64,000 nucleotides of DNA from a virus, in IMG/VR virus record IMGVR_UViG_3300045988_149975; one strand, written 5' to 3'. The notes under the pieces were generated by a model, which did no database searches, was not told where the DNA came from, and saw only the letters and a list, made by a program, of their open reading frames with translations. This document shows positions 6,481-7,326 of the stretch, piece after piece (positions within the stretch are counted from its first letter, which is position 1; every line of letters begins with the position of its first letter). A program made the position numbers and the translations under genes.

Positions 6481-6628
6481 ACAAGATTACCTCACCATTA
6501 ATAAAATCTAAATCATCAATGTATGTACAAAAATTTTCATATTTACTATCAATACTAATAAAACATTCTACATTCCCTTGCTTATCTCTTACTTCAATGA
6601 GTGCATCAATAAGTTCATTTAATTTCAT
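6458..6628 (-). CDS. hypothetical protein (start moved to the internal Met)
   Basis: The track ORF 6458..6667 probably starts at MKLNELIDAL (RBS AAAGGAGAGG upstream). That ATG overlaps the stop of the upstream MTase reading frame. Confidence 0.4.
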   Translation of the reverse strand: MKLNELIDALIEVRDKQGNVECFISIDSKYENFCTYIDDLDFINGEVILYGETNEL

Positions 6629-7326
6629 TAGAAATCCTCTCCTTTGCAATGTTGAAATAATTTTCATCTTTTTCTATTCCAATAAACTTACGATTATTCT
6701 TTAAAGCTGCTACACCAGTGCTACCACTACCCATACAATTATCCAATACTACATCACCTTCACTTGTATAAGTCTTAATAAAGTATTCAAGCAATGCAAC
6801 AGGTTTTTGTGTAGGATGTAATCTACATTTATCTTTATTAAAATCTAATACATCTACTGGATAGCGTTTTCCATCATTTACCGTTACTACTGATACTTGC
6901 TCTCCATAATTACTACTACCTCTACCACTTTTGCAGGTATAAGGTTTCCCTTCTCTAAATTGTGGATGGTACGGGGGGGGAGGAATAGAATACTAAAATA
7001 TTTTCATGGTTCTTTAAAGGCATTTTCTTTGCGTTTAAATGTCCTGTTCCCTGTGGTTTACGCCATATCCACTCATACTTGAGATTTTTGATATTGCTTA
7101 CACCTAATACCTTATCAAAAGGAGTCTGTGCAAAGAGTAGGATAGCACCATTATCTTTTATAATACGATTATATTCTTTCCACATTAAGTCCAAATCTAT
7201 AACACTATCCCATTTATTCCTTGTAGTACCAAAAGGCGGATCACAAAGAATTAAATTAACACACTTATCAGGTATATCTTTCATTACCTCTAAACAATCA
7301 CCTAAATACAATTTTAGTTTATCCAT
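6615..7326 (-). pseudogene. beta-class N6-adenine/N4-cytosine DNA methyltransferase, frameshifted in a G8 homopolymer
   Basis: N-terminal frame (6955..7326) carries motif IV DPPF (ILCDPPFGTT). After the G8 tract the -1 frame encodes [63 protein letters not shown] (HPTQKP and motif I FxGxG) and ends at 6615. Removing one G, or adding two, restores a single ORF of about 236 aa. Confidence 0.7.
6973..6980. repeat. G8 homopolymer (C8 on the coding strand) at the methyltransferase frameshift point
   Basis: Direct read: acGGGGGGGGagg in roughly 30 % GC DNA. Confidence 0.9.

Follow-up and report, generated by a model that had tools for sequence, protein, structure and literature searches.

DNA-modification genes switched by simple-sequence repeats (SSRs) have been described in both bacteria and phages. 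The Type III restriction–modification systems of Haemophilus, Neisseria, Moraxella, and Helicobacter pylori include phase-variable mod genes (phasevarions), among them modH, which carries a homopolymeric G/C tract (PMC5700931, PMC13076061). In Campylobacter jejuni, cj0031 encodes a phase-variable Type IIG restriction–modification enzyme, and a polyG tract switches its site-specific methylation (PMC4889913). For phages, contingency loci were demonstrated experimentally only recently, in laboratory T-even coliphages (PMC12633550). The agt gene of T2, which encodes an alpha-glucosyltransferase, is such a locus; its run of nine A residues gives modified and unmodified progeny, and experiments showed that of the two restriction systems TgvAB and McrA/BC each favors one of these types (Gomez, Barrick and Waters, bioRxiv 2025, PMC12633550). 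As related in the same source, Bordetella phage BPP-1 was noted to have a polyG tract in its methylase gene (Liu et al. 2004, J Bacteriol 186:1503), which was not studied further, and the Campylobacter Fletchervirus phages are cited for hypermutable G tracts of 7 to 11 residues that produce phenotypically mixed progeny (Sorensen et al. 2021, Cell Rep 35:109214, cited in PMC12633550, PMC12823448). Here, we analyze a 64,000-nucleotide stretch of viral DNA, IMG/VR record IMGVR_UViG_3300045988_149975 (the window, by which we mean this whole stretch), in which a solitary DNA methyltransferase gene, MTase A (6615..7326, minus strand), is put out of frame (OFF) by a run of eight G residues on the plus strand at 6973..6980. 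We consider it probable, at roughly 0.72, that this run, C8 on the coding strand, is a real hypermutable SSR and acts as a slipped-strand ON/OFF contingency locus in an accessory phage methyltransferase, providing a hedge against host restriction.

Like the mod genes of phasevarions, MTase A has its repeat within the open reading frame (ORF) and belongs to the beta-class N6-adenine methyltransferases (PF01555 superfamily), and slippage is predicted to give ON and OFF forms with alternative methylation states. However, MTase A is small (236 aa), solitary, and Type II-like; it is borne by a phage rather than a chromosome and has no res partner. Its target is presumably the phage's own genome, and the expected payoff is to evade restriction, not to regulate host genes. 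Identification as a Type III mod gene was rejected on the 236-aa length and on the neighbors, which are methyltransferases and ORFs of 56 to 190 aa, none of them Res-sized (the search for Res domains did not extend to every small ORF). The cj0031 gene likewise uses a homopolymeric G tract as an ON/OFF switch of methylation, as is predicted here, but it is chromosomal and encodes a fused restriction–methylation enzyme, whereas MTase A is a solitary phage methyltransferase.

Among phages, T2 agt offers the precedent for bet-hedging, as its homopolymer also lies in a DNA-modification gene and causes frameshifts, which are reversible in T2. While the T2 tract is an A9 in a glucosyltransferase that acts on 5-hydroxymethylcytosine, the runs described here consist of C/G and lie in methyltransferases of an uncultured gut phage, with two tract-bearing genes (three in relatives) and evidence that is wholly comparative. 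BPP-1 is similar by description, in that its DNA methylase gene has a polyG tract and both phages carry a diversity-generating retroelement; it is a 42-kb temperate phage of a proteobacterium, and no sequence relationship is claimed. The Fletchervirus tracts, as cited, concern receptor-binding proteins and host recognition, whereas the tracts here are in DNA methyltransferases. A preliminary description of the window had called a phage-borne phase-variable methyltransferase unusual. This was overstated, given that phage contingency loci, one of them in a DNA-modification gene, and a polyG-bearing phage methylase are already on record in the account of PMC12633550. Our literature search found no description of SSR-switched methyltransferases in gut phages. 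To the known SSR-switched modification genes, the natural variation reported here would add a single abundant, uncultured gut phage with two to three solitary methyltransferases, each switchable independently of the others.

The MTase A tract reads GGGGGGGG on the plus strand and occupies codons 115–118 of the ORF. The N-terminal ORF (6955..7326, minus strand), which is translated into 123 aa and contains motif IV (DPPF), starts with MDKLKLYLGDCLEVMKDIPDKCVNLILCDPPFG and ends with ...ENILVFYSSPPVPSTI*. This ORF reads through the tract and meets a stop codon 16 nt beyond it, which gives the C terminus ...FYSSPPVPSTI*; on the coding strand, the codons are GAA AAT ATT TTA GTA TTC TAT TCC TCC CCC CCC GTA CCA TCC ACA ATT TAG. 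The C-terminal part (6615..6972, minus strand), which comprises the target-recognition region, HPTQKP, and motif I (MGSGSTG), lies in the adjacent frame and reads YHPQFREGKPY...ISNEIK*, with its stop at 6615. Replacing C8 by C7 or C10 joins the halves in a single ORF (236 and 237 aa, respectively), and a C13 tract gives 238 aa. The preliminary description had placed two methyltransferase halves in adjacent frames that meet at the G8, and its coordinates and frames are correct; its question of whether the halves rebuild a single methyltransferase is answered by the full-length ORF obtained with C7 or C10.

Such a run is rare in this DNA. The window has 32.7% GC with a strong strand asymmetry (11.7% G and 21.0% C on the plus strand), and 0.002 G runs of eight or more are expected in it, in agreement with the earlier claim that the G8 is improbable by chance. 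It is the sole G run of at least 6 in the window, and there are no G runs of 6 or 7. The codons that make up the tract are also rare in the phage genome, where CCC accounts for 8.4% of proline codons and TCC for 5.3% of serine codons.

Once repaired, MTase A matches PF01555 (N6_N4_Mtase) along the entire model (1–221 of 221; E = 7e-33; 114.8 bits against a cut-off of 26.7) as well as phrog_67 (E = 1.5e-81). Its motifs are ordered with DPPF at residues 29–32, MGSGSTG at about 199–205, and the target-recognition region between them, which is the beta-class arrangement. The closest solved relatives are the beta-class adenine methyltransferases CcrM, DpnA, RsrI, and MboIIA, and the C-terminal part was aligned with CcrM, DpnA, and MboIIA over residues 165–233. 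The beta-class assignment made earlier is upheld by the full-model match and by the likeness to these four enzymes, and MTase A is predicted to be an active PF01555 beta-class N6-adenine/N4-cytosine DNA methyltransferase.

We compared the tract in consensus sequences of different samples. The relatives were retrieved chiefly by looking up exact proteins in the Logan and ENA assemblies; scanning for the DNA pattern of the MTase A tract and its flanks returned only two IMG/VR contigs and one metagenome contig. Strains that are 94 to 98% identical to the window have other C-run lengths between the same flanks. The tract is C6 in contig L085, C7 in L032, C8 in the window and in L001, L034, L070, L081, and L089, C9 in L072 and L074, C10 in L073, C11 in L079, and C13 in L071, and it contains at least 13 C residues in L076, a Logan contig that ends inside the tract. 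This break is the one hint of switching within a single population. The window and L073 share 98.3% identity, with 104 substitutions in 6,320 aligned bases and only 2 indels, both at homopolymers. When the MTase A gene is compared with those of L073 and L071, the C tract is the sole indel. The window's own MTase A is found in other assemblies as P0122 (236 aa; C7, SSPPY), P0121 (237 aa; C10, SSPPPY), and P0126 (238 aa; C13, SSPPPPY). Truncated forms of 123 aa and 146 aa, which represent the two wrong frames, are also present in other assemblies, and the exact 123-aa product was called on five of their contigs. Among the cluster members listed, MTase A is intact on about 32 contigs and fragmented on at least 24.

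A second tract, unreported in the preliminary description, is located at 8572..8580. This C9 on the plus strand (G9 on the coding strand) is the sole C run of at least 6 in the window and the proposed switch of MTase C, a second frameshifted (OFF) methyltransferase (8211..8721, minus strand; EFYTP ... SNPPY) about 1.6 kb from MTase A. Both long G/C homopolymers of the 64-kb window are inside methyltransferase genes, and each puts its own gene out of frame. The MTase C product in the window is MDKVASSGNDEFYTP...FVKILGGGK*. Shortening the tract region by 1 base gives ...GGGNEVIHSHINEG...DYIISNPPY..., a protein of 169 aa that matches phrog_799 (E = 1.6e-32) and PF13651 (30.5 bits; cut-off 26.4). 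Among relatives, the length of the tract region varies, with runs from G7 to G10, and some of the frame differences sit at the G/A junction or in flanking bases. The intact 169-aa protein is present in L001, L073, and L075, and truncated forms ending in GGE, GGGE, GGGGE, GGGK, or GGGGK are found on many contigs. All four combinations of MTase C and MTase A states were observed: OFF/OFF in the window, ON/OFF in L001, OFF/ON in L071, and ON/ON in L073. Separately, a deletion in L078 fuses the N terminus of MTase C to the C terminus of MTase A.

Between MTase A and MTase C lies MTase B (7314..7886, minus strand; phrog_799, E = 2e-60), an intact 190-aa SNPPY methyltransferase without a homopolymer that overlaps the start of MTase A. 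An identical 190-aa product is encoded on many contigs. A perfect promoter-like site, TTGACA-17-TATAAT (9088..9116, minus strand; 12 of 12 matches), precedes a unit consisting of a 115-aa ORF, MTase C, a 114-aa ORF, MTase B, and MTase A, and the next perfect promoter-like site downstream is at 5629..5657. Just upstream of the first site is a terminator-like hairpin followed by a T run (9133..9154, minus strand; 9 pairs, 6 of them G-C). In L001, a 2-bp insertion (CT) around window position 7337, near the 3' end of MTase B and just upstream of the MTase A start, alters the C terminus of MTase B and gives a product of 185 aa instead of 190 aa.

The fourth methyltransferase is a C5-cytosine enzyme (2428..4443, minus strand; TIGR00675, E = 1.2e-67) with no homopolymer in the window. 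It has 671 aa in the window versus 328–358 aa in relatives. The approximately 340 extra residues split the catalytic motif between GFPC and QDIS and end in ...VHNC, and the insert looks like an intein. In the relative L086, a different allele of the C5 methyltransferase (5029..6204) has a G9 at 5088..5096, directly after ALDKMGG, and is out of frame (OFF); G7 or G10 would restore the intact ORF. This is the third methyltransferase with a homopolymer in the phage lineage.

Comparable tracts are also present outside this lineage. On L090, a different phage contig of about 105 kb and 33% GC, a methyltransferase that is 77% identical to MTase A (3001..3708) has a C10 at 3341..3350, at the same codon positions as in MTase A and in frame (KSPPPY; AAA TCC CCC CCC CCA TAC). 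L103, an unrelated contig of a GTDB genome bin with 46% GC, has six G8–G9 tracts within 4.7 kb (1..4714), of which four are in a split C5 methyltransferase, one is in frame in a PF01555 homologue (TYTKGGD), and one is further downstream. Likewise, L118 has a G8 around 2573, at the same PF01555 site as in L103. Such elements may commonly have homopolymers in their methyltransferase genes.

The ratio of nonsynonymous to synonymous substitution rates (dN/dS) between MTase A alleles is 0.03–0.09, OFF alleles included, with dS up to 0.30. All OFF alleles are restored to a full ORF by a change of tract length alone, except the allele shared by L034 and L089. Pseudogene decay of MTase A was rejected on these two grounds, the low dN/dS and the repairability by the tract only. 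Judging from these alignments, MTase A is under purifying selection; it is nevertheless an accessory gene.

The protein itself does not require the tract. Homologues at 41–62% identity have FYRKKPTYNPQM (FY(R/K)KKPTYNPQM) at the tract site, where G/C runs do not exceed 4 and indels reach about 20 residues, while homologues at 65–77% identity have KKPPxYNPQM there. In the AlphaFold (AF2) model of an ON allele (predicted local distance difference test [pLDDT] score of 83; predicted template modeling [pTM] score of 0.80), the tract-encoded S-C-P-P-P-Y (residues 115–120) forms a coil right after the strand at 107–113, and pLDDT falls below 50 at residues 120–122. This low-confidence coil fits a tolerance of one to three extra prolines. 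A homopolymer that persists despite unfavorable codon usage, where the protein has no need of it, has the look of a selected mutable tract.

Several platforms are prone to errors at homopolymers of 8 or more, and the L076 contig ends inside its tract. It could be argued from this that the C8 is a sequencing or assembly artefact, the true tract being C7, the gene intact, and the homopolymer over-called. However, L002 and L003, which match the window at every position (100% identity) over 6,372 and 6,011 bases, have the C8 of MTase A and the G9 of MTase C (the window-identical assemblies are an ENA scaffold of SAMN04329780 and a Logan contig of SRR2992900), and lengths from 6 to 13 across samples go beyond one-base errors. 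Control A/T runs of 6–7 nt in the same 10 kb of the same assemblies were constant in 22 of 22, 21 of 21, and 20 of 20 cases, with two minor exceptions, whereas the G and C tracts vary; in addition, C7 would itself still be a long homopolymer. Because the two identical assemblies share C8 and G9 and the strains range from C6 to C13, a miscall is essentially excluded, and the MTase A frameshift is, on this comparison, real. The preliminary description had left the choice between phase-variable and miscalled; the former is supported at the strain-to-strain level, with ON and OFF genes among tracts of C6 to C13, and the latter is all but excluded, the C8 being repeated. We also give little credence to a recoding explanation, in which the out-of-frame arrangement would be the normal one and the enzyme would be made constitutively at a low level, either by programmed +1 frameshifting on CCC-CCC-G or by transcriptional slippage on C8. 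Polymerases can be made to slip by C/G runs of at least 8, and CCC-N is known as a site prone to +1 shifts. A +1 shift at the second CCC would yield exactly SSPPYHPQ, and OFF alleles are frequent. Yet genes with programmed frameshifts stay out of frame, whereas here many alleles are in frame (236, 237, and 238 aa) and OFF alleles occur in both wrong frames (123 and 146 aa). A stimulatory element was not noticed either, although no search was aimed at one. Programmed frameshifting was rejected as the main explanation because of these common in-frame alleles; recoding could only add leakiness to a switch at the DNA level, not replace it.

The remaining alternative is non-adaptive hypermutability, where the tract would be a mutational hot spot in a dispensable gene and its length changes would be neutral or mildly deleterious steps en route to gene loss. 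We regard this as unlikely, although such a hot spot would look similar in part, and several observations that it accommodates weigh against a contingency locus. MTase A is absent from L075, L077, L083, L084, and L086. L080 and L082 have a tract-free mosaic allele in its place (2147..2866), with conserved ends and a different core (DLPY ... KKKPVYNKQ), and the L034/L089 allele has lost motif I through a 108-bp in-frame deletion (two contigs). Moreover, the gene is OFF in 10 of the 13 distinct tract-bearing copies for which DNA loci were readable. Three further points count against the contingency reading: single assemblies may err by one base at long homopolymers, the comparison is between consensus sequences of different samples, and the OFF state may be leaky, as transcriptional slippage or +1 ribosomal slippage on CCC-CCC-G might remake the ON protein from C8. 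What argues against non-adaptive hypermutability is that dN/dS remains at 0.03–0.09 with OFF alleles included and that a second lesion is present only in the L034/L089 allele. The tract also occurs at the same site in the 77%-identical gene of another phage despite the bias against CCC and TCC, and the long G/C runs of the lineage are in three different methyltransferase genes and, in the window, nowhere else. Finally, the cluster members listed comprise intact copies and fragments in about equal numbers, whereas random lengths would leave about one third intact.

If MTase A is a contingency locus, slipped-strand mispairing during phage DNA replication would add or remove C residues, and the replicase would presumably be the phage's own family-A DNA polymerase (24263..26521, minus strand; phrog_17, E = 8e-95). 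Frame-keeping lengths, namely C7, C10, and C13 on the flank found in the window and C6 on an AATAT flank, would give active enzyme, the only difference between these ON forms being one or two prolines in the surface loop that joins the catalytic core to the target-recognition region. Every other length, the window's C8 among them, cuts the protein short after 123 or 146 aa, ahead of motif I, which binds S-adenosylmethionine. MTase C, in the same predicted transcription unit and with its own G tract, would switch independently. Switching is seen from strain to strain, and if slippage is frequent enough, each phage population would be a mix of the MTase A/MTase C types ON/ON, ON/OFF, OFF/ON, and OFF/OFF over a constant background of MTase B and the C5 methyltransferase. 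The methylases would act on the phage's own genome. The benefit would most likely be bet-hedging, as methylated genomes could evade restriction–modification systems that cut the unmethylated motif, while unmethylated genomes could evade methylation-dependent (Type IV) restriction.

A broader proposal, to which we give slightly less than even odds, is that the region forms a combinatorial "epigenetic bet-hedging module." It would comprise several solitary methyltransferases with independently slipping G/C tracts (two in the window and a third in relatives), allele replacement, and possibly an adjoining gene of the 7-deazaguanine type. Each burst would then release progeny with differing DNA modification, matched to the restriction and methylation-dependent defenses of co-resident host strains. 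If this is true, the module together with a diversity-generating retroelement on a tail protein would let the phage diversify both adsorption and survival after entry.

Solitary phage methyltransferases are usually treated as constitutive antirestriction devices. The natural variation found in dozens of public gut metagenomes points to a common gut phage that keeps two or more of them as ON/OFF switches. The locus would extend the idea of phage contingency loci to methylation, to a widespread uncultured member of the human virome, and to a multigene combinatorial form. Tract-bearing genes of this type are routinely annotated as pseudogenes or "corrected" as homopolymer errors, and phage populations with mixed methylomes would confound the methylation-based assignment of phage contigs to hosts.

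The window encodes phage proteins that include the family-A DNA polymerase, ribonucleotide reductase, helicases, a UvsX-like recombinase, a reverse transcriptase, and a J-like tail protein, and an ORF of 1,597 aa is taken to be the tape-measure protein from its size and position. The MTase locus is found on contigs of 93–101 kb in many independent assemblies of human-gut and other metagenomes, for example, ERR414447 ("human gut metagenome"). From this gene content and distribution, the element is read as an uncultured tailed phage of about 95–101 kb that is widespread in human-gut metagenomes. Among cultured phages, Bacillus phage BCD7 has the closest DNA polymerase, which is 32% identical. 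When GenBank phages were searched by megablast with 2.5 kb and with 24 kb of the window, no relative came up, and the one match was 95 bp of a Bacillus phage methyltransferase. The phage thus lacks close relatives that have been cultured or deposited.

A scan of genome contigs with the single methyltransferase protein found nothing, and a scan with an alignment returned only homologues of 51–65% identity, mostly from Bacillota such as Christensenella, Pumilibacter, and Bacillus. These homologues are too distant and mixed, so no host is named. The perfect TTGACA-17-TATAAT promoters and the MTase homologues weakly suggest a low-GC Bacillota host. Neither tRNA genes nor other tandem repeats of note were found in the window.

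Some other features of the phage are also of note. The diversity-generating retroelement (37262..40186) comprises a reverse transcriptase (37262..38551; phrog_1423), a template repeat (38876..38989), and a variable repeat (39150..39263) at the 3' end of a tail-protein ORF (39125..40186; phrog_11262); all mismatches within the repeat are at template adenines. Beside the methyltransferase cluster, a 621-aa ORF (10975..12840) matches phrog_887, "queuine tRNA-ribosyltransferase" (E = 1.4e-65), and has no Pfam match. It may be a DpdA-like enzyme that modifies DNA with 7-deazaguanine, in which case the phage would have one more DNA-modification function. An RNA ligase (9891..10964; PF21189 and PF09414) has 357 aa in the window. 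In many relatives (L070–L072, L076–L078, and L083–L085), it has 720–722 aa, with an intein and a LAGLIDADG endonuclease. The presence of the intein varies between strains.

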